From Spirochaetia bacterium (GTDB lineage Bacteria > Spirochaetota > Spirochaetia > SP-2023): a stretch of DNA of 64,000 nt. Position numbers and translations under genes: made by a program. The notes beneath the pieces were generated by a model. It saw only the letters and a program-made list of their open reading frames with translations, was not told the origin of the DNA and did no database searches. Where the stretch lies: positions 1,061,509 to 1,125,508 of the forward strand of contig CBDDCK010000005.1 of assembly GCA_965225855.1 (NCBI GenBank). Reading direction: 5' to 3'. The first letter of the stretch is position 1; every line of letters begins with the position of its first letter. This document shows, piece by piece, positions 8,018-43,379 of the stretch.

Positions 8018-8057
8018 TTTTATTCCTTTTAATTTTTATTTTAAAGTTTTATCAAGA

Positions 8058-12764: not shown

Positions 12765-12781
12765 ATAAACTCCTGCACGCT

Positions 12782-12810
12782 AGTATAGTTATTTCATTTG
12801 TCAAGCTCAA
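12782..12810 (-). promoter_or_regulatory. Candidate sigma70 promoter for cas12a, between the last repeat and the start codon
   Basis: Minus strand reads TTGAGC (12810-12805), 17 nt, TATACT (12787-12782), then AGGAG 5 nt before the ATG at 12764. Sequence pattern only. Confidence 0.4.
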
Positions 12811-12831
12811 TAACTTTAACATAATTATTTA

Positions 12832-15800
12832 ATCTACAACAGTAGAAATTAAATAGTGTCCTTAGACTCTTCTTCTCTGCTGTATATTTTTTTGTAAAAT
12901 CTACAACAGTAGAAATTAAATAGTGTCCTTAGACCAAACCACCCAAACATTCAACCCTTCAATCTACAACAGTAGAAATTAAATAGTGTCCTTAGACTTA
13001 CTCAACATCCTAGTCTGCTACAATCTACAACAGTAGAAATTAAATAGTGTCCTTAGACTCTTCTTCTCTGCTGTATATTTTTTTGTAAAATCTACAACAG
13101 TAGAAATTAAATAGTGTCCTTAGACCAAACCACCCAAACATTCAACCCTTCAATCTACAACAGTAGAAATTAAATAGTGTCCTTAGACTTACTCAACATC
13201 CTAGTCTGCTACAATCTACAACAGTAGAAATTAAATAGTGTCCTTAGACTCTTCTTCTCTGCTGTATATTTTTTTGTAAAATCTACAACAGTAGAAATTA
13301 AATAGTGTCCTTAGACCAACGAAGCCCTAGCCGAAGCCAACGATCTACAACAGTAGAAATTAAATAGTGTCCTTAGACTATGATATGGACAGAAGAAGAT
13401 GATGATATCTACAACAGTAGAAATTAAATAGTGTCCTTAGACGAATAACAACGGCGAGATCGCCGTAATCTACAACAGTAGAAATTAAATAGTGTCCTTA
13501 GACGAAAATAGCTAAGGGAATAGCTATAGAGATCTACAACAGTAGAAATTAAATAGTGTCCTTAGACAGCCCTATGGTGATTGCTACAGGCCTATCTACA
13601 ACAGTAGAAATTAAATAGTGTCCTTAGACAGCCCTATGGTGATTGCTACAGGCCTATCTACAACAGTAGAAATTAAATAGTGTCCTTAGACAAAATAGCA
13701 AACGATGCCGTGGTCGCAATCTACAACAGTAGAAATTAAATAGTGTCCTTAGACACGTTAATTTGCCCGATTATTGTAAAAATCTACAACAGTAGAAATT
13801 AAATAGTGTCCTTAGACACCGTATAATGCAATTGCATGATTGATTATCTACAACAGTAGAAATTAAATAGTGTCCTTAGACACCGTATAATGCAATTGCA
13901 TGATTGATTATCTACAACAGTAGAAATTAAATAGTGTCCTTAGACCATATTGCCACTCAAAAACAATTTTAACTATCTACAACAGTAGAAATTAAATAGT
14001 GTCCTTAGACAGTCTATTGTTCGTCTGTCTTGGAGGGAATCTACAACAGTAGAAATTAAATAGTGTCCTTAGACCACTCCTCCAGCACACACACTCCTCC
14101 AGATCTACAACAGTAGAAATTAAATAGTGTCCTTAGACGGATTCATAGTCAGCCTCAAAATGGGATCTACAACAGTAGAAATTAAATAGTGTCCTTAGAC
14201 AATGAAATCTTCCCATTGATCCCATAAATCTACAACAGTAGAAATTAAATAGTGTCCTTAGACGCCAACAGCAATAAAATAGCAATGTTCATCTACAACA
14301 GTAGAAATTAAATAGTGTCCTTAGACCCTGTGTATCTTGGTGAAGATTATTCATCTACAACAGTAGAAATTAAATAGTGTCCTTAGACGCGTTTTATCCG
14401 TGTAGGAATCTACAATCTACAACAGTAGAAATTAAATAGTGTCCTTAGACAACTCATCCCAGCGACCCTGATAGCCATCTACAACAGTAGAAATTAAATA
14501 GTGTCCTTAGACAATACTCATTATAAATAAGGTTATACGCTATCTACAACAGTAGAAATTAAATAGTGTCCTTAGACTGTATCTGTATAGACAATCTAAG
14601 GTCAATCTACAACAGTAGAAATTAAATAGTGTCCTTAGACTCTATATTCATCCCAACGTCCTTGATAACATCTACAACAGTAGAAATTAAATAGTGTCCT
14701 TAGACATGTCAATTACCATAATCCCTTTAGTATCTACAACAGTAGAAATTAAATAGTGTCCTTAGACCAAATGCAGTGCTCTTTTTTTTTTAATCTACAA
14801 CAGTAGAAATTAAATAGTGTCCTTAGACTCTGGATGAACACATACGAACTAGTTATCTACAACAGTAGAAATTAAATAGTGTCCTTAGACACTGTTGCAC
14901 AAGGCCTCCCAATTTTATCTACAACAGTAGAAATTAAATAGTGTCCTTAGACATGTCTAATGAAATAAAACAATACAATATCTACAACAGTAGAAATTAA
15001 ATAGTGTCCTTAGACCGGTTGTATAGCTTTGCATTGGGCAGCCATCTACAACAGTAGAAATTAAATAGTGTCCTTAGACCCCTAAGCATAAGAGCACTAT
15101 TCAATACTATCTACAACAGTAGAAATTAAATAGTGTCCTTAGACTTACGCCATTACATTGGGCCGCGCGCAAATCTACAACAGTAGAAATTAAATAGTGT
15201 CCTTAGACATTATCTTAATATATCCAAGGGGCTATAATCTACAACAGTAGAAATTAAATAGTGTCCTTAGACACAGCCCCATCTAGGAAATCCATTTAAT
15301 CTACAACAGTAGAAATTAAATAGTGTCCTTAGACAACAGATTCAAAAATCCCTTTTTATCTATCTACAACAGTAGAAATTAAATAGTGTCCTTAGACATC
15401 GGGCACGCCGTTTATTACCAATTATCTACAACAGTAGAAATTAAATAGTGTCCTTAGACGGAAAATGAATAAGTTTGCTTGTACTTAATCTACAACAGTA
15501 GAAATTAAATAGTGTCCTTAGACGGAAAATGAATAAGTTTGCTTGTACTTAATCTACAACAGTAGAAATTAAATAGTGTCCTTAGACATGGCAGGCGCAG
15601 AAGGAGACGCCCGTATCTACAACAGTAGAAATTAAATAGTGTCCTTAGACATTTTTATCCTATACCCGCAGCAGTAACAATCTACAACAGTAGAAATTAA
15701 ATAGTGTCCTTAGACCTTCAATCTGTTCTTCCATATACCACCTATCTACAACAGTAGAAATTAAATAGTGTCCTTAGACTGTCGTGATATTTACTACCAG

Positions 15801-18800
15801 ATACCATCTACAACAGTAGAAATTAAATAGTGTCCTTAGACACAACATTTATTCTATAAATACAACCTAATCTACAACAGTAGAAATTAAATAGTGTCCT
15901 TAGACAAATACAGCCGATAATATGAATATATAATCTACAACAGTAGAAATTAAATAGTGTCCTTAGACGAGATATCGTTGTTGCCACGAGAACGATCTAC
16001 AACAGTAGAAATTAAATAGTGTCCTTAGACAATTCGGTTACTGGAAACTTGGACACATCTACAACAGTAGAAATTAAATAGTGTCCTTAGACCGTAAAAC
16101 TGGAAACTTAGAAATTCAGGACATCTACAACAGTAGAAATTAAATAGTGTCCTTAGACAGAACAAGAATTAAACCTAGTGCGCAATCTACAACAGTAGAA
16201 ATTAAATAGTGTCCTTAGACCAATAGTGAACAATTCAAGCCACCTATTATCTACAACAGTAGAAATTAAATAGTGTCCTTAGACTTTACAAGTTTGCAAG
16301 CAGCACCACAAATCTACAACAGTAGAAATTAAATAGTGTCCTTAGACCCCACGATAGGGTAAAATAGCTACCAATCTACAACAGTAGAAATTAAATAGTG
16401 TCCTTAGACATTGATGTTGTAAGATAGAACTATTGCCATATCTACAACAGTAGAAATTAAATAGTGTCCTTAGACTTTAAAAGAAAACAATTGAATTGAT
16501 CCTATCTACAACAGTAGAAATTAAATAGTGTCCTTAGACAATGTTTAGTTTGTCAATTTCGTTGTGATCTACAACAGTAGAAATTAAATAGTGTCCTTAG
16601 ACCTTTTGATAAGGCCGAGGTGGCCCTATATCTACAACAGTAGAAATTAAATAGTGTCCTTAGACCATAAAATCGGGGGCTTAAAACCAATAATCTACAA
16701 CAGTAGAAATTAAATAGTGTCCTTAGACCTTCATATGCTGCGCAGTGCAAGGGTGATCTACAACAGTAGAAATTAAATAGTGTCCTTAGACCTTCATATG
16801 CTGCGCAGTGCAAGGGTGATCTACAACAGTAGAAATTAAATAGTGTCCTTAGACCTTCATATGCTGCGCAGTGCAAGGGTGATCTACAACAGTAGAAATT
16901 AAATAGTGTCCTTAGACCTGCTAATAGCAGCTGGGGCCGATCCATCTACAACAGTAGAAATTAAATAGTGTCCTTAGACCTGCTAATAGCAGCTGGGGCC
17001 GATCCATCTACAACAGTAGAAATTAAATAGTGTCCTTAGACCCCTTGCACTGGGCAGCCGATGAAGAATCTACAACAGTAGAAATTAAATAGTGTCCTTA
17101 GACCTTAGCCTCATATGGAGGCCATAAAATCTACAACAGTAGAAATTAAATAGTGTCCTTAGACATAAAATCGGGGACTTAAAACCAATAATCTACAACA
17201 GTAGAAATTAAATAGTGTCCTTAGACACATCCTTGCTAAAGCTACTGACCATAAATCTACAACAGTAGAAATTAAATAGTGTCCTTAGACCATGAATGGT
17301 ATGTTTTATAATTGTTAATCTACAACAGTAGAAATTAAATAGTGTCCTTAGACTTTTGTTGCTGTTAATCCTGACTCCTATCTACAACAGTAGAAATTAA
17401 ATAGTGTCCTTAGACCTTGGCCTTTACATCGGCCAATTACATCTACAACAGTAGAAATTAAATAGTGTCCTTAGACAAAATATACAGGTTTATATCGTAT
17501 CCATCTACAACAGTAGAAATTAAATAGTGTCCTTAGACCTTGGCCTTTACATCGGCCAATTACATCTACAACAGTAGAAATTAAATAGTGTCCTTAGACG
17601 ACGCAATATCCTGCATCTAGCAGCGAATCTACAACAGTAGAAATTAAATAGTGTCCTTAGACAGGGCTAAAGGTGTGGCCGAAGCTAAATCTACAACAGT
17701 AGAAATTAAATAGTGTCCTTAGACCAACGCCAATCCCTAGCAATCCACCCACATCTACAACAGTAGAAATTAAATAGTGTCCTTAGACTACAAAGGAATA
17801 GAATACGCTTCGTATCTACAACAGTAGAAATTAAATAGTGTCCTTAGACGCCATAACTAAAAGAAAAAAAGTACAAATCTACAACAGTAGAAATTAAATA
17901 GTGTCCTTAGACCAAATCATTTTTAACTTTAACCTCCATATCTACAACAGTAGAAATTAAATAGTGTCCTTAGACGTACGGTCAATAAACAAACCCCTAA
18001 TTGATCTACAACAGTAGAAATTAAATAGTGTCCTTAGACCAGCAAACCAGCACCGAGCGTAATAAAAATCTACAACAGTAGAAATTAAATAGTGTCCTTA
18101 GACTCCACAACAGTTTTTTCTTCCACTTCGGATCTACAACAGTAGAAATTAAATAGTGTCCTTAGACTTATGAAAAATATAAAGGAAAGCTTGAAAATCT
18201 ACAACAGTAGAAATTAAATAGTGTCCTTAGACCCTATAAGGGTATGCTACCGTGTAATAAATCTACAACAGTAGAAATTAAATAGTGTCCTTAGACCTTG
18301 CTAAGGCAGTCTGCAACCCCCGTATCTACAACAGTAGAAATTAAATAGTGTCCTTAGACCAAATATGGTAACATAAATAATATCTGATCTACAACAGTAG
18401 AAATTAAATAGTGTCCTTAGACTTAGCAGAAGATCAAGAATTGCGTGAAATCTACAACAGTAGAAATTAAATAGTGTCCTTAGACTTCTGTTCAGCGTAG
18501 GGTTACTGATCTATCTACAACAGTAGAAATTAAATAGTGTCCTTAGACCTTGTTTATAACTCATTCCTATTTCGTTATCTACAACAGTAGAAATTAAATA
18601 GTGTCCTTAGACCGTTGGTGGCTAAGTCTAGCCGTTTTAATCTACAACAGTAGAAATTAAATAGTGTCCTTAGACCACTGTTGCAAAGTGCCTCCCAATT
18701 TTATCTACAACAGTAGAAATTAAATAGTGTCCTTAGACAGTTTATCGTAAGGTTTTCTTATTTTATATCTACAACAGTAGAAATTAAATAGTGTCCTTAG

Positions 18801-21800
18801 ACAGCAGCAGGATCGCGGATTATTTAAATCATCTACAACAGTAGAAATTAAATAGTGTCCTTAGACTTATCTATAGCCTTATCCAAAGATACAATCTACA
18901 ACAGTAGAAATTAAATAGTGTCCTTAGACAGGCAAACCATATCTTTTACCTATATCATCTACAACAGTAGAAATTAAATAGTGTCCTTAGACAGCACCAA
19001 TTAACGCTCCAATACCTGCATCTACAACAGTAGAAATTAAATAGTGTCCTTAGACAAAACAAAATGATGATTTTAACTTTGAATCTACAACAGTAGAAAT
19101 TAAATAGTGTCCTTAGACTTTGCATCCTTCAAAATCAAGGTCTCATCTACAACAGTAGAAATTAAATAGTGTCCTTAGACGTTGGATCGCCTAAATATTG
19201 GGCTGCATCTACAACAGTAGAAATTAAATAGTGTCCTTAGACTTTGCATCCTTCAAAATCAAGGTCTCATCTACAACAGTAGAAATTAAATAGTGTCCTT
19301 AGACGTTGGATCGCCTAAATATTGGGCTGCATCTACAACAGTAGAAATTAAATAGTGTCCTTAGACGATGCAATAACAGAAGCCAAAGCATTATCTACAA
19401 CAGTAGAAATTAAATAGTGTCCTTAGACGTGGCAGATTTTATGAAGTTCTTACAATCTACAACAGTAGAAATTAAATAGTGTCCTTAGACCTACTATGAT
19501 ACACCAACAACCGAAACAATCTACAACAGTAGAAATTAAATAGTGTCCTTAGACCCCAATTCACCAGCAAAACACAAACATCTACAACAGTAGAAATTAA
19601 ATAGTGTCCTTAGACGCCCATGATCTTTTATTGATTAAGAATAATCTACAACAGTAGAAATTAAATAGTGTCCTTAGACTATAAGCATAAGCAGCAGACG
19701 CTGCCAATCTACAACAGTAGAAATTAAATAGTGTCCTTAGACTTCTGGGGAACCAGTAATCCAATTTGTATCTACAACAGTAGAAATTAAATAGTGTCCT
19801 TAGACGCACCTTAGTAAAACCACGTTTGTTGTTATCTACAACAGTAGAAATTAAATAGTGTCCTTAGACTAAAAAAGACTGTACACCTTTGCACTATCTA
19901 CAACAGTAGAAATTAAATAGTGTCCTTAGACTTTATTCCTCCTTCTTGTTTCGCATCAATCTACAACAGTAGAAATTAAATAGTGTCCTTAGACTTGCAC
20001 GCAACAAAAACAGGGCAAAGCTATCTACAACAGTAGAAATTAAATAGTGTCCTTAGACATTTACAGCGATAAAGTAAAGTTACATGATCTACAACAGTAG
20101 AAATTAAATAGTGTCCTTAGACAACAAAGTGAAACAAGCCATAAAAAAGTATCTACAACAGTAGAAATTAAATAGTGTCCTTAGACATGGATGATATTAT
20201 TCTTCTTTCTATATCTACAACAGTAGAAATTAAATAGTGTCCTTAGACATGGATGATATTATTCTTCTTTCTATATCTACAACAGTAGAAATTAAATAGT
20301 GTCCTTAGACGTGCTTATATCAACGGCGCAGATTATATCTACAACAGTAGAAATTAAATAGTGTCCTTAGACTCGAAAGCGCACGAAAAAGCCAAGAAAT
20401 CTACAACAGTAGAAATTAAATAGTGTCCTTAGACACGCTCTACAGGTTATCAATGCTTTTGAATCTACAACAGTAGAAATTAAATAGTGTCCTTAGACTA
20501 CCTCACTATAAAACCACGGAATACATCTACAACAGTAGAAATTAAATAGTGTCCTTAGACATTTACAGCGATAAAGTAAAGTTACATGATCTACAACAGT
20601 AGAAATTAAATAGTGTCCTTAGACACGCTCTACAGGTTATCAATGCTTTTGAATCTACAACAGTAGAAATTAAATAGTGTCCTTAGACCTGCAAAATCCC
20701 ATAATTTAGATCATAATCTACAACAGTAGAAATTAAATAGTGTCCTTAGACAGTCGAGAAATCCGGTTTCAGACTGATCTACAACAGTAGAAATTAAATA
20801 GTGTCCTTAGACTTAATCTAAATAACCAAAAGAAACCGAATCTACAACAGTAGAAATTAAATAGTGTCCTTAGACGTACCTATTAGTACAAATACTTATA
20901 TAATCTACAACAGTAGAAATTAAATAGTGTCCTTAGACTTTTGTTATTTTTTATTTAAGTTTTAAATCTACAACAGTAGAAATTAAATAGTGTCCTTAGA
21001 CCTTTGCTATTTCTTCGCCTTGAGGTTGAATCTACAACAGTAGAAATTAAATAGTGTCCTTAGACTTTAACTGTAGAAGAAATAATAGAAGAAATCTACA
21101 ACAGTAGAAATTAAATAGTGTCCTTAGACGAACAAATTAAAAAAGTTTTTAAGGAATCTACAACAGTAGAAATTAAATAGTGTCCTTAGACTTCCCACTT
21201 AGTAAAAAAACAAGTAAATCTACAACAGTAGAAATTAAATAGTGTCCTTAGACCGTCTGATCCTTTAATTGATGCATTTTATCTACAACAGTAGAAATTA
21301 AATAGTGTCCTTAGACTTTTCTTTATCAAGATTAAATAAATCGATCTACAACAGTAGAAATTAAATAGTGTCCTTAGACAAGCTAAGCACGCACAGCTCA
21401 ATAAACATCTACAACAGTAGAAATTAAATAGTGTCCTTAGACTTTACCATATAAACCTAGCGATGTCATAATCTACAACAGTAGAAATTAAATAGTGTCC
21501 TTAGACAAACATTGTTCCAAGGCCAAAGCCAAATCTACAACAGTAGAAATTAAATAGTGTCCTTAGACAAACTTGGTATTGATTCCGGTCTTTTATCTAC
21601 AACAGTAGAAATTAAATAGTGTCCTTAGACGATTTGCGGATTGGCGAAAAAGGCTTTATCTACAACAGTAGAAATTAAATAGTGTCCTTAGACTTTGTGG
21701 GTCTGGTGTAGAAATTAATTATCTACAACAGTAGAAATTAAATAGTGTCCTTAGACGTCGAGGCAGCTGGGTACCTTATCGAATCTACAACAGTAGAAAT

Positions 21801-24800
21801 TAAATAGTGTCCTTAGACCACTTAAATATAAAGTGGCCCGCAGAATCTACAACAGTAGAAATTAAATAGTGTCCTTAGACGCCAAAAACCTACCTTACAT
21901 AGCAAAAATCTACAACAGTAGAAATTAAATAGTGTCCTTAGACCGCAATAGCCGTATTTTTTTATGATGCATCTACAACAGTAGAAATTAAATAGTGTCC
22001 TTAGACATGGGTTTGTTCGTTGTGGGGTTTTTCATCTACAACAGTAGAAATTAAATAGTGTCCTTAGACAAATCTCTTGGTGTTAGTCATTCCAAATCTA
22101 CAACAGTAGAAATTAAATAGTGTCCTTAGACAAACAACAGATTTAACACCACAAGAAATCTACAACAGTAGAAATTAAATAGTGTCCTTAGACAAAAGCA
22201 GCAGAAATCTCTGTAGAAAATCTACAACAGTAGAAATTAAATAGTGTCCTTAGACTTGTGCGCCTGTTTCGCTGGGATTTGATCTACAACAGTAGAAATT
22301 AAATAGTGTCCTTAGACCCAAAACAGCAGCGTGGAGCGTTGCTGATCTACAACAGTAGAAATTAAATAGTGTCCTTAGACCAAGTTAAGAAATTATTGAT
22401 GCAAGGAATCTACAACAGTAGAAATTAAATAGTGTCCTTAGACTTAATCAGTCTAGTTGAAAAATCTATATCTACAACAGTAGAAATTAAATAGTGTCCT
22501 TAGACTTAATCAGTCTAGTTGAAAAATCTATATCTACAACAGTAGAAATTAAATAGTGTCCTTAGACCGCTAATTGCCCTGTAAGCTGGGCGTTGATCTA
22601 CAACAGTAGAAATTAAATAGTGTCCTTAGACAGTTTATGTTAAATCTGCCGATAATTATCTACAACAGTAGAAATTAAATAGTGTCCTTAGACCCGTTTA
22701 TTAATTCTTTATCAGAAGATATCTACAACAGTAGAAATTAAATAGTGTCCTTAGACCCGTTTATTAATTCTTTATCAGAAGATATCTACAACAGTAGAAA
22801 TTAAATAGTGTCCTTAGACAGTTTATGTTAAATCTGCCGATAATTATCTACAACAGTAGAAATTAAATAGTGTCCTTAGACAAAACAGGGAAAAGCTGAA
22901 ACCCCTAATCTACAACAGTAGAAATTAAATAGTGTCCTTAGACATTGACGCCTTTAGTTTCAAAATCCTATCTACAACAGTAGAAATTAAATAGTGTCCT
23001 TAGACAAACTATGAAAGAAATCCACTTTTAATCTACAACAGTAGAAATTAAATAGTGTCCTTAGACAGTGGTTTAAAGTTTGCATTTGAACGATCTACAA
23101 CAGTAGAAATTAAATAGTGTCCTTAGACCGAAACAAGACTGAAACAAAAACTGAAAATCTACAACAGTAGAAATTAAATAGTGTCCTTAGACCGCAGCAA
23201 CCAATAGATTGGTCGCACAATCTACAACAGTAGAAATTAAATAGTGTCCTTAGACCACTTGGCAAAAACACCAAGAGCATTAATCTACAACAGTAGAAAT
23301 TAAATAGTGTCCTTAGACCTTGATGGCAATAATGCTGAGCGACAGCATCTACAACAGTAGAAATTAAATAGTGTCCTTAGACCTTGATGGCAATAATGCT
23401 GAGCGACAGCATCTACAACAGTAGAAATTAAATAGTGTCCTTAGACCAACCTTGTGGTCAAGATCGATCATGTATCTACAACAGTAGAAATTAAATAGTG
23501 TCCTTAGACGCGTAAAATTTCATCTGATCAGACTTAATCTACAACAGTAGAAATTAAATAGTGTCCTTAGACTTATTTTCGTTTAGCAAAAAAAAGGAAT
23601 CTACAACAGTAGAAATTAAATAGTGTCCTTAGACCTTTGCCTGAAGCCCAAGAACATTTTATCTACAACAGTAGAAATTAAATAGTGTCCTTAGACTTCG
23701 TATTTTACGGCAATCATAGTAAGATCTACAACAGTAGAAATTAAATAGTGTCCTTAGACTTCTAAGATCATTAGGTTTGAGCACAAATCTACAACAGTAG
23801 AAATTAAATAGTGTCCTTAGACAAAAAAAAGGGAAGCACCGCCTCCCAATCTACAACAGTAGAAATTAAATAGTGTCCTTAGACTGCTGGGTCTCGCTAT
23901 ACAGAGTTCCTATCTACAACAGTAGAAATTAAATAGTGTCCTTAGACTATAAAGGATATAAAGAATAGATATAAATCTACAACAGTAGAAATTAAATAGT
24001 GTCCTTAGACTATAAAGGATATAAAGAATAGATATAAATCTACAACAGTAGAAATTAAATAGTGTCCTTAGACTATAAAGGATATAAAGAATAGATATAA
24101 ATCTACAACAGTAGAAATTAAATAGTGTCCTTAGACAGAGCTTTTGTCAATTGAATTATCAAATCTACAACAGTAGAAATTAAATAGTGTCCTTAGACAT
24201 TTTCAAGCCCGATATGGCTTAGAATCTACAACAGTAGAAATTAAATAGTGTCCTTAGACATAGTTGGTACCACAAATAAAGCAATATCTACAACAGTAGA
24301 AATTAAATAGTGTCCTTAGACCGAGACGCCCTTGCACAGGGCAGAGCGCAACGGCATCTACAACAGTAGAAATTAAATAGTGTCCTTAGACTTACAAAGG
24401 GAAAATACAAAAAACAGAAATCTACAACAGTAGAAATTAAATAGTGTCCTTAGACAGAGAAAGATGGGAGTCTGACAAACTAAATCTACAACAGTAGAAA
24501 TTAAATAGTGTCCTTAGACTCCAGCTGCTAGAGGCAGCTGGGGCTTAATCTACAACAGTAGAAATTAAATAGTGTCCTTAGACCACTGTGCTGCCCATAA
24601 AGGTTATACTATCTACAACAGTAGAAATTAAATAGTGTCCTTAGACTTCCTTGTTTACTCGTTATACAGATTATATCTACAACAGTAGAAATTAAATAGT
24701 GTCCTTAGACCTACAATGCAAGCATTGTAATCGGTATGATCTACAACAGTAGAAATTAAATAGTGTCCTTAGACCTACAATGCAAGCATTGTAATCGGTA

Positions 24801-27800
24801 TGATCTACAACAGTAGAAATTAAATAGTGTCCTTAGACTGCAAAACCACAAAAGCCATTGTTGACATCTACAACAGTAGAAATTAAATAGTGTCCTTAGA
24901 CGCTCTACTGTTAAATTAAACGAAATAGATCTACAACAGTAGAAATTAAATAGTGTCCTTAGACAGATCAGAAGTCAAAGAAACAGGATCAATCTACAAC
25001 AGTAGAAATTAAATAGTGTCCTTAGACACGGTTTAGAACCAGTTACGGAAATATCTACAACAGTAGAAATTAAATAGTGTCCTTAGACAAAAATCGAGCC
25101 GACATCACCGAACAAATCTACAACAGTAGAAATTAAATAGTGTCCTTAGACTCCAAGACTGATTGAACCCACTGAATATCTACAACAGTAGAAATTAAAT
25201 AGTGTCCTTAGACAGGAGTCTATTATGGACAAACTATTCATCTACAACAGTAGAAATTAAATAGTGTCCTTAGACAAACCGCCATGGTCCAGCTGCTCTT
25301 GATCTACAACAGTAGAAATTAAATAGTGTCCTTAGACAGAAAGATCAACGGAAAAATTCTCAGATCTACAACAGTAGAAATTAAATAGTGTCCTTAGACC
25401 CAATAATGCTAGATGACAGGTTCTTGCTATCTACAACAGTAGAAATTAAATAGTGTCCTTAGACCCAATAATGCTAGATGACAGGTTCTTGCTATCTACA
25501 ACAGTAGAAATTAAATAGTGTCCTTAGACTCAATATCTAAATAATGCCGCAAAAGCGATCTACAACAGTAGAAATTAAATAGTGTCCTTAGACCAGTAAA
25601 ATTGCCAAGACGACCGCCAGATCTACAACAGTAGAAATTAAATAGTGTCCTTAGACTTTTTTGGTATTCCAATACCTGAAACTATCTACAACAGTAGAAA
25701 TTAAATAGTGTCCTTAGACACGAATTGGCAGCGGCAAGCAGATCGTCATCTACAACAGTAGAAATTAAATAGTGTCCTTAGACTTTGGTTTTACCCCGTG
25801 GCTGGTCTTATATCTACAACAGTAGAAATTAAATAGTGTCCTTAGACTTCTCTGTGATTCTAACTGTTATTTATCTACAACAGTAGAAATTAAATAGTGT
25901 CCTTAGACTTAAAGATATAGAAGTTTTAGATCGACTAATCTACAACAGTAGAAATTAAATAGTGTCCTTAGACCACAATCAAACGCTTAAACAAAATAAT
26001 CTACAACAGTAGAAATTAAATAGTGTCCTTAGACCTCAGTACCTCTCATAAGACCAGTAACAATCTACAACAGTAGAAATTAAATAGTGTCCTTAGACAC
26101 GATTGCCTTTGGTATCGGCACATCTTATCTACAACAGTAGAAATTAAATAGTGTCCTTAGACCACAATCAAACGCTTAAACAAAATAATCTACAACAGTA
26201 GAAATTAAATAGTGTCCTTAGACATTAGGGTAGTTGAGTAGGTAGAAAAGATCTACAACAGTAGAAATTAAATAGTGTCCTTAGACATTAGGGTAGTTGA
26301 GTAGGTAGAAAAGATCTACAACAGTAGAAATTAAATAGTGTCCTTAGACATCTTTCGCAAAATCCAAGTAATCCAATCTACAACAGTAGAAATTAAATAG
26401 TGTCCTTAGACATTGGGCTGCCTATAAAGGGCATACGATCTACAACAGTAGAAATTAAATAGTGTCCTTAGACCAAGAAAATCTTTCTTCAGTCGGAGTA
26501 ATCTACAACAGTAGAAATTAAATAGTGTCCTTAGACCTATTACTTCCCCATACACTCAACCTCATCTACAACAGTAGAAATTAAATAGTGTCCTTAGACG
26601 CCATAAGTAACAGAAAGACCAGACCTAATCTACAACAGTAGAAATTAAATAGTGTCCTTAGACTTTTTGGTATTCCAAATACCTGAAACTATCTACAACA
26701 GTAGAAATTAAATAGTGTCCTTAGACAACCAGATACAAATTAATCTAAACAAAATCTACAACAGTAGAAATTAAATAGTGTCCTTAGACAAAAAATCTAA
26801 ATATGGGAATTTTAAAAATCTACAACAGTAGAAATTAAATAGTGTCCTTAGACCTGCAAACATTAGCCATTTTTGACCAAAATCTACAACAGTAGAAATT
26901 AAATAGTGTCCTTAGACTATCCTTTTTTCAATATCTTTTATACATCTACAACAGTAGAAATTAAATAGTGTCCTTAGACAGCCAGCGCAAAATGCAAATT
27001 TTTATATCTACAACAGTAGAAATTAAATAGTGTCCTTAGACGAGTACATTACCTCGGAAAAGCACAGCGATCTACAACAGTAGAAATTAAATAGTGTCCT
27101 TAGACTTTCTATATTTTTGCCTTAGCATTAATCTACAACAGTAGAAATTAAATAGTGTCCTTAGACGAGTACATTACCTCGGAAAAGCACAGCGATCTAC
27201 AACAGTAGAAATTAAATAGTGTCCTTAGACTTAAATAAGTGAGCAATTTTTCATCCGAATCTACAACAGTAGAAATTAAATAGTGTCCTTAGACTTTGTA
27301 GATGAAGCGCACCGAGGTAAATCTACAACAGTAGAAATTAAATAGTGTCCTTAGACTGCAAAAATATCTAAAAAAAGAACTCATATCTACAACAGTAGAA
27401 ATTAAATAGTGTCCTTAGACTGCTTCTGCTTCTGTCGTTGTATTTTTATCTACAACAGTAGAAATTAAATAGTGTCCTTAGACTAACACGACTACCTTTA
27501 AAAGTAATAATCTACAACAGTAGAAATTAAATAGTGTCCTTAGACGATAAAGATTAGATATTTATCCCATATATCTACAACAGTAGAAATTAAATAGTGT
27601 CCTTAGACTGCAAAAATATCTAAAAAAAGAACTCATATCTACAACAGTAGAAATTAAATAGTGTCCTTAGACATAATTCTTTTATTTTCCACCCCTAAAT
27701 CTACAACAGTAGAAATTAAATAGTGTCCTTAGACTTGTAACGGGTAAAGTTTTAAAGCACAAATCTACAACAGTAGAAATTAAATAGTGTCCTTAGACGG

Positions 27801-30800
27801 TATATTAGTACCTTGCACTACCAGATCTACAACAGTAGAAATTAAATAGTGTCCTTAGACTTTGTTAGCTGCACGCAATTCACCTGATCTACAACAGTAG
27901 AAATTAAATAGTGTCCTTAGACTCTCTTTGAGCATCCATTTTTTATTTGGATCTACAACAGTAGAAATTAAATAGTGTCCTTAGACTCTCTTTGAGCATC
28001 CATTTTTTATTTGGATCTACAACAGTAGAAATTAAATAGTGTCCTTAGACTCTCTTTGAGCATCCATTTTTTATTTGGATCTACAACAGTAGAAATTAAA
28101 TAGTGTCCTTAGACAGCAAGTTTCTCCGCTTGGGCTCTCAATCTACAACAGTAGAAATTAAATAGTGTCCTTAGACGTCTATCCACCACGCGGATTGATT
28201 GAACTCTTTGAGCATCCATTTTTTATTTGGATCTACAACAGTAGAAATTAAATAGTGTCCTTAGACAGCAAGTTTCTCCGCTTGGGCTCTCAATCTACAA
28301 CAGTAGAAATTAAATAGTGTCCTTAGACGAAATATATTGATATGTAACCACGACTATCTACAACAGTAGAAATTAAATAGTGTCCTTAGACTAGACCTAA
28401 ATTAATTGCATAATACAAGATCTACAACAGTAGAAATTAAATAGTGTCCTTAGACCCAGCTGCTAGAGGCAGCTGGGGCTTAATCTACAACAGTAGAAAT
28501 TAAATAGTGTCCTTAGACTAGACCTAAATTAATTGCATAATACAAGATCTACAACAGTAGAAATTAAATAGTGTCCTTAGACATAAGGCTAGATGACACC
28601 TTCTTTACTATCTACAACAGTAGAAATTAAATAGTGTCCTTAGACGAACAAGGATTAAATCCATTCAACAGGATCTACAACAGTAGAAATTAAATAGTGT
28701 CCTTAGACCCCGATATGGCTTAGATACAAAAGCTAGATCTACAACAGTAGAAATTAAATAGTGTCCTTAGACTACTTGACGAACCAACAGAAAAATAAAT
28801 CTACAACAGTAGAAATTAAATAGTGTCCTTAGACTTCAAATAGCAGCAGATAAGCAAATTGCATCTACAACAGTAGAAATTAAATAGTGTCCTTAGACCT
28901 ACAATGCAAGCATTGTAATCGGTATGATCTACAACAGTAGAAATTAAATAGTGTCCTTAGACTGTTAGGTGGAAAAGGAAGAGAGAAGGATCTACAACAG
29001 TAGAAATTAAATAGTGTCCTTAGACACCTCGAATATACAGACCCAAGCCCAATCTACAACAGTAGAAATTAAATAGTGTCCTTAGACAATCGACAATAAA
29101 GAAAAAAGGTAAAATCTACAACAGTAGAAATTAAATAGTGTCCTTAGACGTTAGCCGAATTGCAAAACGACTGAATATCTACAACAGTAGAAATTAAATA
29201 GTGTCCTTAGACATTGCAAGACGATGCTGTAAGTCAAAAATCTACAACAGTAGAAATTAAATAGTGTCCTTAGACATTGTTCAGCTTTATGAAGAAATTT
29301 TGAATCTACAACAGTAGAAATTAAATAGTGTCCTTAGACGCGAAAAGCCATAACCACGGGCAATTATCTACAACAGTAGAAATTAAATAGTGTCCTTAGA
29401 CTTCTATCATTATTGCGCCCTTGATGGATCTACAACAGTAGAAATTAAATAGTGTCCTTAGACCTTCTATTCAGAGGCGTGTTGCTGACCTATCTACAAC
29501 AGTAGAAATTAAATAGTGTCCTTAGACTGTCGCTCTATGGAAGTACCCTTCAATCTACAACAGTAGAAATTAAATAGTGTCCTTAGACACTGGAACTTAA
29601 CAAAGACGGACTTGATCTACAACAGTAGAAATTAAATAGTGTCCTTAGACAGCAATCTTAGAAAAAATGGATAGGGAATCTACAACAGTAGAAATTAAAT
29701 AGTGTCCTTAGACACCAAGCCTATTAAATCTATTGGTTGGATCTACAACAGTAGAAATTAAATAGTGTCCTTAGACAACGGTACACACTCTAATTCACGA
29801 GTGATCTACAACAGTAGAAATTAAATAGTGTCCTTAGACGTTAGATTTTGTGGACATAACTTTTTATCTACAACAGTAGAAATTAAATAGTGTCCTTAGA
29901 CCCCAGCTTTACTGCCAAGGATATTTTATCTACAACAGTAGAAATTAAATAGTGTCCTTAGACCCCAGCTTTACTGCCAAGGATATTTTATCTACAACAG
30001 TAGAAATTAAATAGTGTCCTTAGACCCCAGCTTTACTGCCAAGGATATTTTATCTACAACAGTAGAAATTAAATAGTGTCCTTAGACTGGCTATAACACT
30101 ATCCCCCACAAGAAAATCTACAACAGTAGAAATTAAATAGTGTCCTTAGACATTCTATCATGTTTTTAAGCGAAAATATCTACAACAGTAGAAATTAAAT
30201 AGTGTCCTTAGACTTAACCGTACAAGGTACTGACTTAAATCTACAACAGTAGAAATTAAATAGTGTCCTTAGACTATTACTTCTCCCTACACCCAACCTC
30301 TATCTACAACAGTAGAAATTAAATAGTGTCCTTAGACTAACTGTCTGCTCAATTTGTCTCCTACATCTACAACAGTAGAAATTAAATAGTGTCCTTAGAC
30401 AAGGTCGGTATCGAGACGATCGTGAAATCTACAACAGTAGAAATTAAATAGTGTCCTTAGACTTTCAGAGGTCTTACAGACTTCTGGTACATCTACAACA
30501 GTAGAAATTAAATAGTGTCCTTAGACTAATGTAAATGGTAATATAGATTATGAATCTACAACAGTAGAAATTAAATAGTGTCCTTAGACCTAGCGAAGAA
30601 ACAATCAAAGCTAGTCAATCTACAACAGTAGAAATTAAATAGTGTCCTTAGACCTAGCGAAGAAACAATCAAAGCTAGTCAATCTACAACAGTAGAAATT
30701 AAATAGTGTCCTTAGACTAGTAATATAACTTGCGGCGCTATCGAATCTACAACAGTAGAAATTAAATAGTGTCCTTAGACCCTGAATAAAATAGCTAGTA

Positions 30801-33176
30801 ACGCCGAATCTACAACAGTAGAAATTAAATAGTGTCCTTAGACCGTCCAACGATAACGGATATAACGAAACATCTACAACAGTAGAAATTAAATAGTGTC
30901 CTTAGACATCATATCAATAATTTATATTCTTTAATCTACAACAGTAGAAATTAAATAGTGTCCTTAGACATTGAACGGCAAGCAGGCCTAAATAGTATCT
31001 ACAACAGTAGAAATTAAATAGTGTCCTTAGACATTAAAAGATGTTACTTTTGGCCAAAGTATCTACAACAGTAGAAATTAAATAGTGTCCTTAGACCTAG
31101 CACTAGCACTAGCACACAAACAATCTACAACAGTAGAAATTAAATAGTGTCCTTAGACTATACTACGAGGGCAGTCCTTTGTTCCCATCTACAACAGTAG
31201 AAATTAAATAGTGTCCTTAGACTCCGTCACACAAGGAAAAAACGATAGATCTACAACAGTAGAAATTAAATAGTGTCCTTAGACCTCCGAAACCTTAACA
31301 CCAGCAGACTTGATCTACAACAGTAGAAATTAAATAGTGTCCTTAGACAACCTTCACACCCATTCTCTACAATCATCTACAACAGTAGAAATTAAATAGT
31401 GTCCTTAGACTATTGCCATAAATGCCGATACTATAAATCTACAACAGTAGAAATTAAATAGTGTCCTTAGACTTCTGTAGCCTTGGATAAGGCTGCTTTA
31501 TCTACAACAGTAGAAATTAAATAGTGTCCTTAGACCCTTTTAGGGTGCTTGGGGGACTGGTATAATCTACAACAGTAGAAATTAAATAGTGTCCTTAGAC
31601 ATAAATTGGAATTATAACATGCTATCTATCTACAACAGTAGAAATTAAATAGTGTCCTTAGACCAACCTGCCATCCTCACACAGCCCTAATCTACAACAG
31701 TAGAAATTAAATAGTGTCCTTAGACTCATAATCCTTATTAAATCTCTCTTTCTAATCTACAACAGTAGAAATTAAATAGTGTCCTTAGACTATATGGTTG
31801 CTATGAATAAACATACATATCTACAACAGTAGAAATTAAATAGTGTCCTTAGACCGAAAAGTTAAGTATGGAAGAACTAAAAATCTACAACAGTAGAAAT
31901 TAAATAGTGTCCTTAGACTTCTCGCCACCTGCAAGCAATTCAATATCTACAACAGTAGAAATTAAATAGTGTCCTTAGACATTCCCCGCAGTCTTATAAG
32001 CACTGCCATCTACAACAGTAGAAATTAAATAGTGTCCTTAGACATACCAATATAAAACCTAAAAACAACCATCTACAACAGTAGAAATTAAATAGTGTCC
32101 TTAGACGACCCAATGGGTGCTGGTGCTAGTATGCTATCTACAACAGTAGAAATTAAATAGTGTCCTTAGACAATGCACAATCTGCAGGAAAGATTTATCT
32201 ACAACAGTAGAAATTAAATAGTGTCCTTAGACAGGCTCAATATAAGAATCGTGTTCTGATCTACAACAGTAGAAATTAAATAGTGTCCTTAGACCTGAAA
32301 TTCCAGCAAGTGCCCGCAAGAGGATCTACAACAGTAGAAATTAAATAGTGTCCTTAGACTTGGCACCAGCTAAACTACTGGAAATATATCTACAACAGTA
32401 GAAATTAAATAGTGTCCTTAGACTAGAAAATATTGCTACTTCCGAGAGAATCTACAACAGTAGAAATTAAATAGTGTCCTTAGACATATCGGCTTTAGAT
32501 GTTGGCTTTGGATCTACAACAGTAGAAATTAAATAGTGTCCTTAGACTTTAATAATTTATGTAAAATAAAATTATATCTACAACAGTAGAAATTAAATAG
32601 TGTCCTTAGACAAAAAACAAACACCCGAACAGCTTGCATCTACAACAGTAGAAATTAAATAGTGTCCTTAGACAACCTAAGGAAACAAGGAAACCTAAGA
32701 TCTACAACAGTAGAAATTAAATAGTGTCCTTAGACACTAACACAAGCAAGCATAAACAGGATCTACAACAGTAGAAATTAAATAGTGTCCTTAGACAAGA
32801 AATTGAAAATATTCTAATCTTAAATCTACAACAGTAGAAATTAAATAGTGTCCTTAGACATATCGACAACTTAAGAAAACACTTAAGATCTACAACAGTA
32901 GAAATTAAATAGTGTCCTTAGACAGATAATTCGCTTTTGGATTCATCTATATCTACAACAGTAGAAATTAAATAGTGTCCTTAGACAAGTCTAAATAATA
33001 ATTTGCCAGATTTAATCTACAACAGTAGAAATTAAATAGTGTCCTTAGACAGTTTTTTGAAGACCTTTCTGGTACGATCTACAACAGTAGAAATTAAATA
33101 GTGTCCTTAGACTTGAAGGAATTGAGGAGGGATGATAATAATCTACAACAGTAGAAATTAAATAGTGTCCTTAGAC
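12832..33176 (-). CRISPR. Type V-A CRISPR array, about 323 repeats and about 322 spacers (20,345 bp)
   Basis: The 36-nt repeat is ATCTACAACAGTAGAAATTAAATAGTGTCCTTAGAC on the plus strand. Its minus-strand form is GTCTAAGGACACTATTTAATTTCTACTGTTGTAGAT, ending in the canonical Cas12a 5' handle AAUUUCUACUGUUGUAGAU, so crRNAs come from the minus strand. Spacers are 25-34 nt (mean about 27). First repeat 12832-12867, last repeat 33141-33176. Counted by a manual walk, so possibly off by a few. I saw no variant repeat. Confidence 0.98.
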
Positions 33177-33196
33177 TGTTCAATTTCACTCTCTTT

Positions 33197-33454
33197 TTAT
33201 CGATTTTTACTATCGTAGCGGTCGATTTTTCCGCATAGCCCATATTTTTCAGAATACGCAAAAATAGACTGGAACATCGATTTTGCTGTGCTGTATTTTT
33301 GCTTATCAATATTTATGTGAGCAGCCAGTCCTCTGCGCTGGGGCTCTTCATGATAGAAGTAGGTTGAGGTCTGTCCGTACAGTTGGTGAAAATAGAGCGA
33401 CCTAGGGCAAAACATAAAATCATTTAGATATGAAATGGGAATATAACTTTCCAA
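33197..33454 (-). pseudogene. cas4: cas4 N-terminal fragment (about 85 codons), truncated just before the first CRISPR repeat
   Basis: 'ISYLNDFMFCPRSLYFHQLYG' (Cas4 N-terminal Cys region) and '...YGLCGKIDRYD' (RecB-like motif II region), then a stop. The rest of the RecB nuclease core and the C-terminal Cys cluster are missing. The ORF ends 21 nt from repeat 33141-33176. TTG start. Confidence 0.7.
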
Positions 33455-33551: not shown

Positions 33552-34067
33552 TCATACGAATAGAAAGAAAAGCAAACCGATTTTATGAATAAGAGAAAGG
33601 AGACGGCTTAAAGATTCTAACTGCTGCTCATATACATATTGCTTTATCATTTCCAATCCTCCCAAATCCATTATATAAGATGAAAATCCTGAAGATTTTG
33701 CCGTTAATTGTTTTAGATGTTCTTCAAACTTTTCCCATTCATTGTTCATTCTACCAGTATTTTGTTGCTCAAGTCCATAAGTTTTTAAAGCATGATAAGA
33801 TAAAGCAATGGTTTCGATATGAACAAAAAGGCAAAGAGGTAAGCTGTCTATTTTCTTATTATCAAAGTAATGCAACTCCCTTAGTAAGGGATATGTTCCT
33901 TTTCCAGCTGCAATTTTCTTTTTTTGCCTTTCTGCTAACTTCTTGTAGAGTTTATATAATTGTTTGTGGTCTAATGCTACAACCACACCACAAACAAAAG
34001 ATTTAAGCTTTTTATCAAAAAGGTCAAATTTACCAGTTTCATCAAGGCCTACATACCATGTTGTCAT
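33552..34067 (-). CDS. Hypothetical protein (171 aa) inside the CRISPR-Cas island
   Basis: ORF with low GC like the cas genes. The N-terminal 'WYVGLDETGKF' weakly recalls the DESG start of DUF3800 or RNase-H-like folds. No confident family assignment. Confidence 0.4.
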   Translation of the reverse strand: MTTWYVGLDETGKFDLFDKKLKSFVCGVVVALDHKQLYKLYKKLAERQKKKIAAGKGTYPLLRELHYFDNKKIDSLPLCLFVHIETIALSYHALKTYGLEQQNTGRMNNEWEKFEEHLKQLTAKSSGFSSYIMDLGGLEMIKQYVYEQQLESLSRLLSLIHKIGLLFFLFV

Positions 34068-42043: not shown

Positions 42044-42238
42044 AGCGTCCTACTTTGTGCATTGGATATTGGCTAAATTGTGGTAACAAAGCCGTTGCTA
42101 TTTATTATAAGCAAAATAGCAGTAATGGTCTATAGTTTTACAAGCTAAAGCAGACGGTGATAGCCTGCTTAGCAAGGCTGTATTTGCTTGTTTGCTAGTG
42201 GGTTTTGGCCCTGATAGCCTTGCTATTGAATAAATACC

Positions 42239-42352
42239 AAGGCTGTAAAAAAATTTATTAAGGCTACAAATTTTTTTGTCAAGGCTGTAAATTTTTTTAG
42301 CAAGGCTGCAAAAAGATTTTGCAAGGCTGTATTTTCGCAAATACCAAGGCTC
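42239..42352. repeat. 21-bp-phased AAGGCTG direct-repeat array (6 units), copy 1
   Basis: AAGGCT(G/A/C) starts at 42239, 42260, 42281, 42302, 42323 and 42346. Each core is followed by an A/T tract. Confidence 0.85.
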
Positions 42353-42501
42353 TAATTCTGAATTGCATACTTGGCTATTACTTTTTGCCTTATGGTAGAT
42401 TACTAGATATTCACCAGCCAATATTTGGGTTACTAGCTACAAAAAAAGGGTCTAAGACCCCAAAAAAACAGAAAAAATTGCAAATAATATTTGCAAAGCA
42501 C

Positions 42502-42529: not shown

Positions 42530-42594
42530 AGGTCCGCAATAGTGCAGCCCGTATGGGTTTGCAAACCTTTATTCTCTTTTTAGGAGGTAGTTTT

Positions 42595-43373: not shown

Positions 43374-43379
43374 AGCCCC

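Follow-up and report, generated by a model that had tools for sequence, protein, structure and literature searches.

Few CRISPR arrays reach several hundred spacers, and what limits their length is debated. Candidate limits are the dilution of crRNAs, the need to transcribe about 20 kb of non-coding RNA and recombinational instability. Published arrays have a mean of about 13 spacers, with a maximum of 587 in a complete genome, that of Haliangium ochraceum (PMC7145573), and of 1,131 in metagenomic data (PMC8026048). Canonical type V-A loci, such as that of Francisella novicida U112, have the order cas12a-cas4-cas1-cas2-leader-array. In V-A systems, Cas1-Cas2 integrates at the leader-repeat junction and PAM selection requires Cas4 (PMC13034035). 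In Cas12a3 systems, a matching RNA triggers cleavage of tRNA 3' tails and growth arrest (PMC12851939; also PMC13594972).

We analyzed a 64-kb stretch of DNA (henceforth referred to as the window) in which a very long array lies upstream of cas12a. The locus is carried on one contig of 2,033,073 bp. The host is a spirochaete related to Candidatus Haliotispira (SecA identity to Ca. Haliotispira prima, 78%) with a genome of roughly 2.03 Mb, of which the array makes up about 1%. The GC content is 26-35% across the CRISPR island versus 38-46% in the flanks. The features of the locus are listed in Table 1.

Table 1. Features of the CRISPR locus, in window coordinates
Feature	Coordinates	Strand	Evidence
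Second effector, 1202 aa	4409..8017	-	PDB Cas12a3 matches, phmmer, conserved residues
cas12a, 1568 aa	8058..12764	-	TIGR04330, Pfam, PDB matches, motifs
Gap between array and cas12a, 67 nt	12765..12831	-	TTGAGC-17-TATACT, AGGAG
Type V-A CRISPR array	12832..33176	-	Exact-match count, spacer parsing, repeat fold
Distal (terminal) repeat, perfect copy	12832..12867	-	
Distal array end, last seven spacers (S316-S322), a 3-spacer block repeated 2.3 times	12868..13280	-	
Terminator-like spacer TGGGAGGCGGTGCTTCCCTTTTTTTT	23823..23848	-	Sense-strand hairpin plus T8
54-nt double-length spacer	28177..28230	-	Spacer parsing
First repeat to be transcribed, on the expected leader side; perfect copy	33141..33176	-	
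Junction AAAGAGAGTGAAATTGAACA, 20 nt, between the stump stop codon and the first repeat	33177..33196	-	
cas4 stump, 85-codon ORF corresponding to Cas4 residues 1-84	33197..33454	-	PADLOC, tblastn, alignment
171-aa ORF between fabF and the cas4 stump	33552..34067	-	

We counted the repeats by exact matching across the window. This gave 323 identical copies of a 36-nt repeat, ATCTACAACAGTAGAAATTAAATAGTGTCCTTAGAC on the plus strand, over 20,345 bp from the start of the lowest copy to the end of the highest, in agreement with the initial annotation, which had read about 323 perfect repeats over 20.3 kb by eye. That annotation had allowed that variant copies might have been missed, but an automated search tolerating up to 6 substitutions found no extra or variant repeat on either strand of the whole window. 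Both terminal repeats are therefore perfect. On the transcribed strand the repeat is GTCTAAGGACACTATTTAATTTCTACTGTTGTAGAT, the reverse complement of ATCTACAACAGTAGAAATTAAATAGTGTCCTTAGAC, and its predicted fold places a UCUAC-UGUU-GUAGA Cas12a handle hairpin (5-bp stem and 4-nt loop, repeat positions 22-35) at the 3' end. Parsing of the spacers yielded 322, with a mean length of about 27 nt, the same figures as had been estimated manually. All but two (320 of 322) are 25-31 nt long: 25 nt (21 spacers), 26 nt (98), 27 nt (98), 28 nt (85), 29 nt (13), 30 nt (2) and 31 nt (3). The exceptions are one spacer of 34 nt and one of 54 nt. The handle hairpin, the regular and mostly unique spacers and the adjoining cas12a identify the locus as a true type V-A CRISPR array of great length, as originally classified. 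A degenerate terminal repeat, which is common in CRISPR arrays but not defining, is absent.

We assessed redundancy among the spacers. Whereas 286 of the 322 are unique, 36 are extra copies: 30 spacer sequences are present 2-3 times, and 11% of the units are duplicates. The copies lie one unit apart in 20 cases, two units in 6 and three units in 7, and the largest duplicated block comprises at most 3 units. Every duplicate copy is exact, so little mutation has accumulated overall. We also observed an A-B-B-A order among duplicated units and one lost repeat. The 54-nt spacer opens with the first 27 nt of a spacer present in three copies (S81-S83) two units beyond it, and 27 other nt follow with no repeat between. 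The duplicated spacer-repeat units are direct evidence of recombination within the array. The initial annotation had attributed the uniform repeats to homogenisation or recombination, or to very recent expansion; recombination is borne out by these units, and homogenisation and growth are inseparable by sequence alone.

Other spacers carry a record of acquisition. The near-duplicate pairs S75/S137, S230/S290 and S254/S262 are alike at the 5' end, with either a different 3' end or 1-3 substitutions between them, and spacers S71/S142 overlap. Both patterns fit independent, PAM-anchored acquisitions from variant targets. No duplicates occur among the 39 spacers nearest the cas4 side (p about 0.02 by our own arithmetic on duplicate positions, assuming 30 independent duplication families), which fits the cas4-side end being the youngest part of the array. 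The comparison of spacers with viral databases proposed in the initial annotation returned no target: all matches in GenBank phages were at chance level and there was none in IMG/VR for the 7 spacers searched. No target was found inside the window either.

The Cas12a encoded next to the array scored 1025.6 bits against TIGR04330 (cut-off 300) and up to 916 bits against Cas12a proteins in the PDB, and contains the Pfam REC1, REC2, RuvC and NUC domains. Judged by their motifs, RuvC I, II and III (GIDRGE at 1124, LEDLN at 1222 and DSDANGAYNIA at 1505) and the pre-crRNA-processing histidine site (ILFHCPIT at about 1088-1095) are intact. The protein exceeds the usual length by about 250 aa and had no match to the Pfam PI-like, PAM-interacting domain PF22222. 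This domain is found in most Cas12a homologues, and it had no match in the long Cas12a of two related loci (L002 and L004) either. The PAM-interacting region may be divergent and not absent.

The second effector, already noticed beside cas12a in the initial annotation, starts 40 nt past the cas12a stop codon. The profile of its family matched the Cas12a3 structures 21we and 9hlx over their full length (519 and 429 bits) versus 74 bits for SuCas12a2 (8d49), at the C-terminus only. With phmmer, the 1202-aa protein scored 182-243 bits against four published Cas12a3 sequences and had no match to MpCas12a2 or to three Cas12a4 N-terminal halves. On these profile and phmmer scores, with Cas12a4 compared by its N-terminal halves, we place the protein provisionally in the Cas12a3 clade and not with Cas12a2 or the Cas12a4 N-terminal halves. 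Its closest Cas12a3 relative is P0122 (56% identity). D753, E997 and D1160, together with C1104, C1107, C1130 and C1137, are invariant in a 20-member family alignment; the former are assigned by motif context to the RuvC catalytic triad, and the four cysteines are those of the zinc ribbon. The region of the tRNA-loading domain, taken as residues 855-960 of Ba1Cas12a3, seems shorter here: phmmer left residues 847-966 of Ba1Cas12a3 (about 120 aa) unaligned against only about 41 aa of the effector. The equivalent segment between the flanking motifs, read off the alignment, is about 75 aa, similar to the 73-76 aa of the Ni, Rb2 and Sm2 Cas12a3 proteins.

On the other side of the array, PADLOC, tblastn and alignment agree with the initial annotation that the ORF next to the first repeat is a cas4 stump. 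It matches positions 1-79 of 178 of the PADLOC Cas4 (PREFRAN) with an E value of 4e-25. We compared it by tblastn and alignment with nine full-length Cas4 genes, and the alignment with the Cas4 of five relatives stops at ...GKIDRYDSKN. The stump thus contains neither the LxERK (ERK catalytic) motif nor about 100 C-terminal residues, and with them neither a complete Cas4 core (D...ExK) nor the C-terminal Fe-S cysteines. The junction AAAGAGAGTGAAATTGAACA is of ambiguous origin, either a leader remnant or a partial spacer. The 171-aa ORF had no Pfam, NCBIfam or PADLOC match and no similarity to the related loci; possibly it belongs to the low-GC island. We searched the window for Cas1 and Cas2 with Pfam and NCBIfam on the scanned ORFs and with relatives' proteins by tblastn and found neither; the rest of cas4, cas1, cas2 and a leader are absent from the window. 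Since cas4 is a stump, the whole adaptation module and the leader appear to have been lost from the locus, and adaptation activity was probably lost with them.

Promoter-like sites upstream of the array numbered 5, versus 5.6 expected in shuffled sequence, and none was convincing. The initial annotation had correctly placed the distal repeat 67 nt from the cas12a start codon and proposed a promoter in that gap. The motif, TTGAGC-17-TATACT, is present (12810 to 12782, minus strand), but such sites are no commoner there than in shuffled sequence (2 found versus 3.0 +/- 2.0 expected). An AGGAG lies five nt ahead of the cas12a ATG (12764).

We compared the locus with five related loci (L002-L006). 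All five have the order cas12a-cas12a3-(accessory)-cas4-cas1-cas2, and the homologue of the 1202-aa gene (31-43% identity) follows cas12a. The array follows cas2 in L002, L004, L005 and L006, with 7, 86, at least 70 and 8 repeats, respectively, and was not found in L003; the repeats of these four have a V-A handle of the same kind. In none of the five does an array lie upstream of cas12a as it does here, so the gene order is indeed atypical, as first noted. Because the related loci keep the order effectors-cas4-cas1-cas2(-array), the present locus appears to have been rearranged, with loss of the adaptation module. The arrays of L004 and L005 are also long, the larger having about a quarter as many repeats as the present one. 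The perfect distal repeat had been regarded as abnormal; it is perfect, but so is that of three of the four related arrays with a visible distal end (L002, 7/7 repeats; L005, 70/70; L006, 8/8), and only that of L004 is degenerate. Three features went unremarked in the initial annotation, namely the 36 duplicate spacers, the 54-nt spacer and the loss of the adaptation module implied by the stump.

The best explanation of the whole, to which we assign a probability of roughly 0.7, is a genuine long V-A array that grew one spacer at a time, acquired duplicates by slippage and later lost its adaptation module. The 286 distinct spacers would have been gained singly at the end now abutting cas4, and because each insertion copies the first repeat, all repeats would be identical. 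Slippage during replication, or unequal crossing-over among identical repeats lying close together, would have added about 36 duplicate units. A later deletion or rearrangement would have taken the 3' half of cas4, cas1, cas2 and the leader. With the adaptation genes deleted, growth from this locus's own genes would have ended, leaving only duplication and deletion. Transcription would follow the minus strand, entering the array at the 33176 end, leaving it at the 12832 end and continuing into cas12a and then the second effector. Cas12a would cut the array transcript into crRNAs, each with a repeat-derived 5' handle ahead of its spacer, and these probably load both the DNA-cutting Cas12a and the Cas12a3-type nuclease. 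If the latter acts as its characterized relatives do, an RNA match would lead to clipping of tRNA 3' tails and growth arrest. Two observations count against this explanation: the array has no convincing promoter upstream, and the spacer TGGGAGGCGGTGCTTCCCTTTTTTTT, at about 46% of the array length, resembles an intrinsic terminator in the sense strand.

We considered whether the array could be an assembly artefact, inflated by mis-assembled repeats or joined as a chimera of several strains' arrays from a metagenome. Given identical 36-nt repeats and short tandem duplications, short reads would leave the copy number of the duplicated units unsettled. Whatever those copy numbers are, 286 distinct spacers require at least 287 repeats. 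A strain chimera would repeat long runs of old shared spacers, whereas the duplicated blocks here do not exceed 3 units. The single 2.03-Mb contig and the zero indels in 323 repeats that contain A and T runs suggest a high-quality consensus. No second public copy of the flanking proteins turned up in exact-sequence look-ups, and the genome and metagenome collections searched do not contain the repeat, so there is no independent assembly for comparison. We regard an artefact as very improbable.

We consider two further explanations unlikely. Even without a leader, the array could still be growing at its first repeat through an intact Cas4-Cas1-Cas2 acting in trans from elsewhere in the genome. 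In favour of this are the identity of all 323 repeats, the absence of duplicates among the first 39 spacers on the cas4 side and the visible record of repeated acquisition from variant targets; the perfect repeats and the duplicate-free stretch would then reflect rapid acquisition that is still going on. In vitro, about 3 nt of leader and the TCTA/TAGA repeat ends suffice for F. novicida Cas1-Cas2 (PMC13034035), so that leader loss alone does not prove adaptation impossible, and both ends are found in the present repeat. Against ongoing growth, the window, 64 kb of about 2 Mb, holds no cas1, cas2 or remnant of them and its sole cas4 is the stump, and every array detected in a related locus adjoins the adaptation module. 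Alternatively, the array could be old, with repeats kept identical mainly by gene conversion or recombination (concerted evolution) and not by recent growth. The arrays of L005 (70 of 70 repeats uniform, 69 of 69 spacers unique) and L006 (8 of 8 repeats uniform) are perfectly uniform without any duplications, so templated copying at acquisition is enough for uniformity, and the exactness of all duplicate copies argues for little mutation overall. Nevertheless, recombination is demonstrably active here, given the 36 duplicated units, the A-B-B-A pattern and the lost repeat, and the 86-repeat array of L004 has, besides a degenerate end, 5 variant repeats, a rate at which the 323 repeats here should include about 19 variants; none was seen.

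A more far-reaching reading is tentative. In it, a leaderless array of about 20 kb, perhaps one of the largest V-A arrays on record, would feed about 290 different guides, without adaptation genes, to two mechanistically different effectors, the DNA-cutting Cas12a and an RNA-triggered, tRNA-clipping Cas12a3; array, cas12a and cas12a3 would be expressed as a single unit, and the library would change solely through duplication and deletion mediated by the repeats. If this were so, the locus would be a system for testing crRNA dilution and guide sharing between effectors, and a test case for immune memory after adaptation loss. Returning to the preferred explanation of growth followed by module loss, the locus is a striking, very large example of a known system, and the principle itself is not new. 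An array at the published length cut-off in a small genome bears on the limits to array length, and the small duplications inside it record repeat-mediated recombination at work. With its truncated cas4 abutting the first repeat, the locus cleanly exemplifies effectors and memory that have lost their acquisition machinery. Together with the five related loci, it places cas12a and cas12a3 recurrently side by side, presumably with one array for both.

Compared with canonical V-A systems, the locus has the same 36-nt repeat size, spacers of 25-31 nt and intact Cas12a RuvC and RNase motifs. The FnCas12a repeat shares 29 of 36 positions with the present repeat, including the whole 3' handle AATTTCTACTGTTGTAGAT. 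The locus differs in its 322 spacers where tens are usual, the position of its array upstream of cas12a, its extra effector, its 84-residue cas4, the absence of cas1, cas2 and a leader from the window, and the longer Cas12a.

The characterized Cas12a3 systems (Ba1Cas12a3 and others, PMC12851939; BaCas12a3, PMC13594972) likewise combine a V-A-type locus with a Cas12a-type repeat, and their effectors align with the 1202-aa protein over most of its length, although at low identity (E about 1e-52 to Ba1Cas12a3). Unlike in those systems, the Cas12a3-like gene here directly follows a cas12a, and whereas most loci in the table of PMC12851939 have cas4, cas1 and cas2, this one does not. Spirochaetes are missing from that table, and the present spirochaetal effector extends Cas12a3 to this phylum. 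Against the longest known arrays, the exceptional size claimed initially stands as extreme length and not as a record: the array lies in the extreme tail, at roughly the 20-kb scale of the published cut-off (PMC7145573, PMC8047081, PMC8026048), and is shorter than the record arrays and belongs to class 2 type V-A.

We counted 323 exact copies of the repeat ATCTACAACAGTAGAAATTAAATAGTGTCCTTAGAC in the window, spanning 20,345 bp. No further copy with up to six substitutions was detected on either strand, so all the repeats are identical, including both terminal ones. The repeat count, coordinates, mean spacer length and repeat identity reported in the initial annotation were right, as judged by exact-match counting and spacer parsing. 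That annotation had missed 36 extra spacer copies and a 54-nt spacer: the 322 spacers, numbered S1 to S322 with S322 at the distal (12832) end, comprise 286 unique sequences and measure 25–31 nt except for one of 34 nt and the one of 54 nt. The reverse-complemented repeat, GTCTAAGGACACTATTTAATTTCTACTGTTGTAGAT, carries the Cas12a handle at its end and is predicted to fold into a hairpin with a 5-bp stem and a 4-nt loop (UCUAC-UGUU-GUAGA). In type V-A crRNAs the repeat handle precedes the spacer, so reading of the array must proceed along the minus strand, starting at 33176 and ending at 12832, and the genes flanking it are oriented likewise.

We examined how such an array could have been built. 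Thirty spacer sequences are present two or three times each, and successive copies lie mostly close together (one unit apart in 20 cases, two units in 6, three units in 7 and further in 3). The final seven spacers at the distal end are a three-spacer block repeated 2.3 times. Duplicates are absent among the 39 spacers closest to 33176 (p ~0.02 by our own arithmetic on positions, assuming 30 independent duplication families). Other pairs are similar without being identical. S75/S137, S230/S290 and S254/S262 share the same start nucleotide and differ by one nucleotide in length or by 1–3 substitutions, S103/S119 share a start and are set apart by an indel, and S71/S142 overlap. Such near-duplicates are expected if variant targets were sampled independently in PAM-anchored acquisitions, and together with the 286 unique spacers they show a naturally accumulated library. 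The initial annotation took the uniform repeats to suggest ongoing homogenisation or recombination, or very recent expansion. The short-range duplications fit recombination between repeats and could have arisen by slippage during replication or by unequal exchange of adjacent repeats, processes reviewed previously (PMC8047081). The uniformity itself can be explained by acquisition: type V-A integration occurs at the leader-repeat junction (PMC13034035), and the repeats would be uniform because each acquisition copies the leader-proximal one. Gene conversion may add to this uniformity, and its contribution is inseparable from that of recent growth on the basis of sequence alone.

The array is in the extreme tail of sizes and is no record, with the caveat that the published values are not specific to type V-A. 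Bacterial arrays typically hold <50 spacers (PMC8047081), the mean array has 12.7 spacers with a distribution that drops at several hundred (~20 kb) and a metagenomic maximum of 1,131 (PMC8026048), and the longest array among complete genomes has 587 (PMC7145573). It occupies ~1% of its 2,033,073-bp source contig. Because 286 spacers are distinct, at least 287 repeats are required. Duplicated blocks span three units at most, a pattern that speaks against a chimera of strain variants, and read length affects the copy numbers of small duplications only. No independent assembly of the locus was found by exact look-ups of the Cas12a, second effector and FabF proteins, or by searching genome and metagenome contig collections for the exact 36-nt repeat, which had no match.

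The cas4 stump proposed in the initial annotation was borne out by its match to the type V-A Cas4 model. It shares 48–58% identity with the first 78–85 residues of nine full-length Cas4 genes, and the homology ends at ...GKIDRYDSKN, directly before the catalytic ERK motif, where a stop codon follows. The first repeat starts 20 nt beyond this stop codon. Searching the 64-kb window by tblastn with the Cas1 and Cas2 of four relatives returned nothing, and no adaptation genes were present among the window ORFs scanned with Pfam and NCBIfam. Given the cas4 end point and the lack of Cas1 and Cas2 matches, the sequence indicates a locus that lacks cas1, cas2, the leader and the 3′ half of cas4. The 20 nt ahead of the first repeat show no resemblance to the leader ends at four other loci (L002, L004, L006 and L008), and neither repeat-like sequence nor microhomology was apparent at the breakpoint. 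A deletion from the middle of cas4 to the array start would be the simplest step producing this junction.

Downstream of the array, cas12a encodes a protein with RuvC I, II and III and FHCPIT motifs, and a search of species-representative genomes found no close relatives of it. The Cas12a proteins of the window and of L002 and L004, the loci whose Cas12a3 relatives were the closest ones retrievable, are ~250 aa above the usual length and have no match to the Pfam PI-like domain seen in most homologues. The window protein also has a short internal duplication, (V)SQKKGLE..DKK, at approximately residues 282–317. The second effector had no Pfam or NCBIfam match, and its PDB matches were two Cas12a3 structures only. 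A profile of its 20-member family aligned over the full length of these structures (519 and 429 bits), whereas it matched SuCas12a2 at the C-terminus only (74 bits). Among the supplementary sequences of the Cas12a3 paper, the effector matched four Cas12a3 (182–243 bits), with no match to MpCas12a2 or to three Cas12a4 represented by their N-terminal halves. The family shows no variation at the RuvC acidic residues or at four zinc-ribbon cysteines. On these grounds we filed the second effector as a putative member of the Cas12a3 clade. Our first idea, Cas12a2, was rejected after single-sequence and phmmer searches gave no Cas12a2 match.

We assessed how the array might be expressed. The 67-nt gap between the distal repeat and the cas12a start codon was correctly measured in the initial annotation, and the motif it considered a plausible promoter is present there, but promoter-like sites in the gap are no more common than in shuffled sequence. 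Within the array the scan found few such sites, and by our reading the repeat contains no hexamer meeting −10 criteria. One spacer resembles an intrinsic terminator in the array sense, and could lower expression of the distal half and read-through into cas12a. A terminator scan reported 26 sites compared to 7.7 expected in shuffles, most of them palindromes formed where a spacer ending in GT or GTG meets the repeat. Scanning the window for Rfam families and tRNAs gave no match.

Comparison of the spacers with viral databases, a check proposed in the initial annotation, yielded no targets. The 286 unique spacers had only chance-level matches among GenBank phages (E ~0.7, to unrelated Enterococcus and Staphylococcus phages), seven spacers searched as exact patterns had no match in IMG/VR, and no self-target with ≤4 mismatches occurs in the rest of the window. 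In crRNA sense, T exceeds A in 163 spacers vs 105 with the reverse, and T is the first nucleotide in 42%; this excess may reflect no more than T-rich PAM neighbourhoods, and we therefore dropped an interpretation as strand bias. In the opposite sense, G exceeds C, and the stop-codon test was powerless on calibration.

The SecA protein shares 78% identity with its counterpart in Candidatus Haliotispira prima, with the next matches in Spirochaetaceae. The GC content is 26–35% over ~4.4 to 33.5 kb and 38–46% in the flanks, a contrast suggestive of horizontal acquisition for an island flanked by signal-peptidase/phosphatase genes and fabF/fabD. Elsewhere in the window, a cluster of paralogous cassettes could represent a spirochaetal family of variable surface proteins or lipoproteins.

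Features of the window and of five related loci with cas12a and cas12a3 genes (L002 to L006)
Locus	Feature	Coordinates	Strand	Description
Window	261-aa ORF	3741-4526	plus	no family match; antisense overlap of 118 nt with 3′ end of cas12a3-like gene; may be spurious
Window	second effector	4409-8017		1202 aa; starts 40 nt past cas12a stop codon
Window	cas12a	8058-12764		1568 aa, intact; TIGR04330, 1025.6 bits; Pfam REC1, REC2, RuvC, NUC; PDB Cas12a matches
Window	TTGAGC-17-TATACT	12810 to 12782	minus	AGGAG then ATG downstream
Window	CRISPR array	12832-33176	minus	
Window	GT/GTG palindromes	13200-33176	minus	repeat 5′ end extended into GTGTCTAAGGACAC, then T-rich run TATTTAATTT
Window	terminator-like spacer	23823-23848	minus	TGGGAGGCGGTGCTTCCCTTTTTTTT; GC-rich hairpin then T8; ~46% along array
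Window	54-nt spacer	28177-28230		first 27 nt = spacer present three times two units further on; then 27 unrelated nt, no repeat between
Window	cas4 stump	33197-33454		85-codon ORF; type V-A Cas4 model positions 1-79 of 178, E 4e-25
Window	171-aa ORF	33552-34067	minus	between fabF and cas4 stump; N-terminus YVGLDETGKF; no match in Pfam, NCBIfam or PADLOC; no similarity to related loci
Window	cassette cluster	42000-52600		internal 33-nt (11-aa) and 54-nt tandem repeats; 300-nt segments 95-99% identical
Window	two 368-aa ORFs	46216-47322, 49055-50161		weak GldB_lipo/DUF2268 matches
Window	several coiled-coil ORFs	43380-44171, 50476-51168, 51560-52165		
L002	gene order			cas12a-cas12a3-ATPase-cas4-cas1-cas2
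L002	cas12a	5302-9972		1556 aa
L002	array	16642-17066		7 repeats; antisense to cas operon, distal end abutting cas2
L003	gene order			cas12a-(ATPase, opposite strand)-cas12a3-cas4-cas1-cas2; no array found
L004	gene order			cas12a-two small genes-cas12a3-TPR gene-cas4-cas1-cas2-leader
L004	cas12a	4615-9273		1552 aa
L004	array			86 repeats; sense
L005	gene order			cas12a-cas12a3-third Cas12-like gene-cas4-cas1-cas2
L005	three consecutive Cas12-type genes	2127-13279		1307, 1170 and 1183 aa; third weakly similar to window Cas12a and Cas12a3
L005	array	15145-19537		at least 70 repeats; antisense to cas operon, distal end abutting cas2
L006	gene order			cas12a-cas12a3-cas4-cas1; no cas2-sized ORF in 150-aa listing
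L006	array			8 repeats; sense

We compared the locus to its relatives. Searches detected 37 homologues of the second effector, several of which share a contig with a Cas12a homologue, and the gene order was readable at five loci. Unlike in the window, none of the five has an array upstream of cas12a; the window order is thus a rearrangement, and the description of it as atypical stands. The perfect terminal repeat, regarded as an anomaly in the initial annotation, proved to be common in the clade and nothing special, because the arrays of L002, L005 and L006 likewise end in a perfect distal repeat. Only L004 has a degenerate one, and it carries five variant internal repeats as well. Array orientation is not fixed in the clade, being antisense at two loci and sense at two others.

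Overall, the initial observation was confirmed and its identification was essentially right. The interest of the locus lies in the size of the array and its internal duplications, in an adaptation module that has been lost, leaving a cas4 that breaks off 20 nt short of the first repeat, and in the occurrence of Cas12a alongside a Cas12a3-type effector in a spirochaete, both downstream of the array. Characterised Cas12a3 proteins are nucleases that, once triggered by RNA, clip the 3′ tails of tRNAs (PMC12851939). The segment corresponding to the tRNA-loading domain appears shorter in the second effector than in the characterised Ba1Cas12a3, and its length seems close to that in other published Cas12a3. 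This kind of system is already known, and the locus is an extreme example of it.
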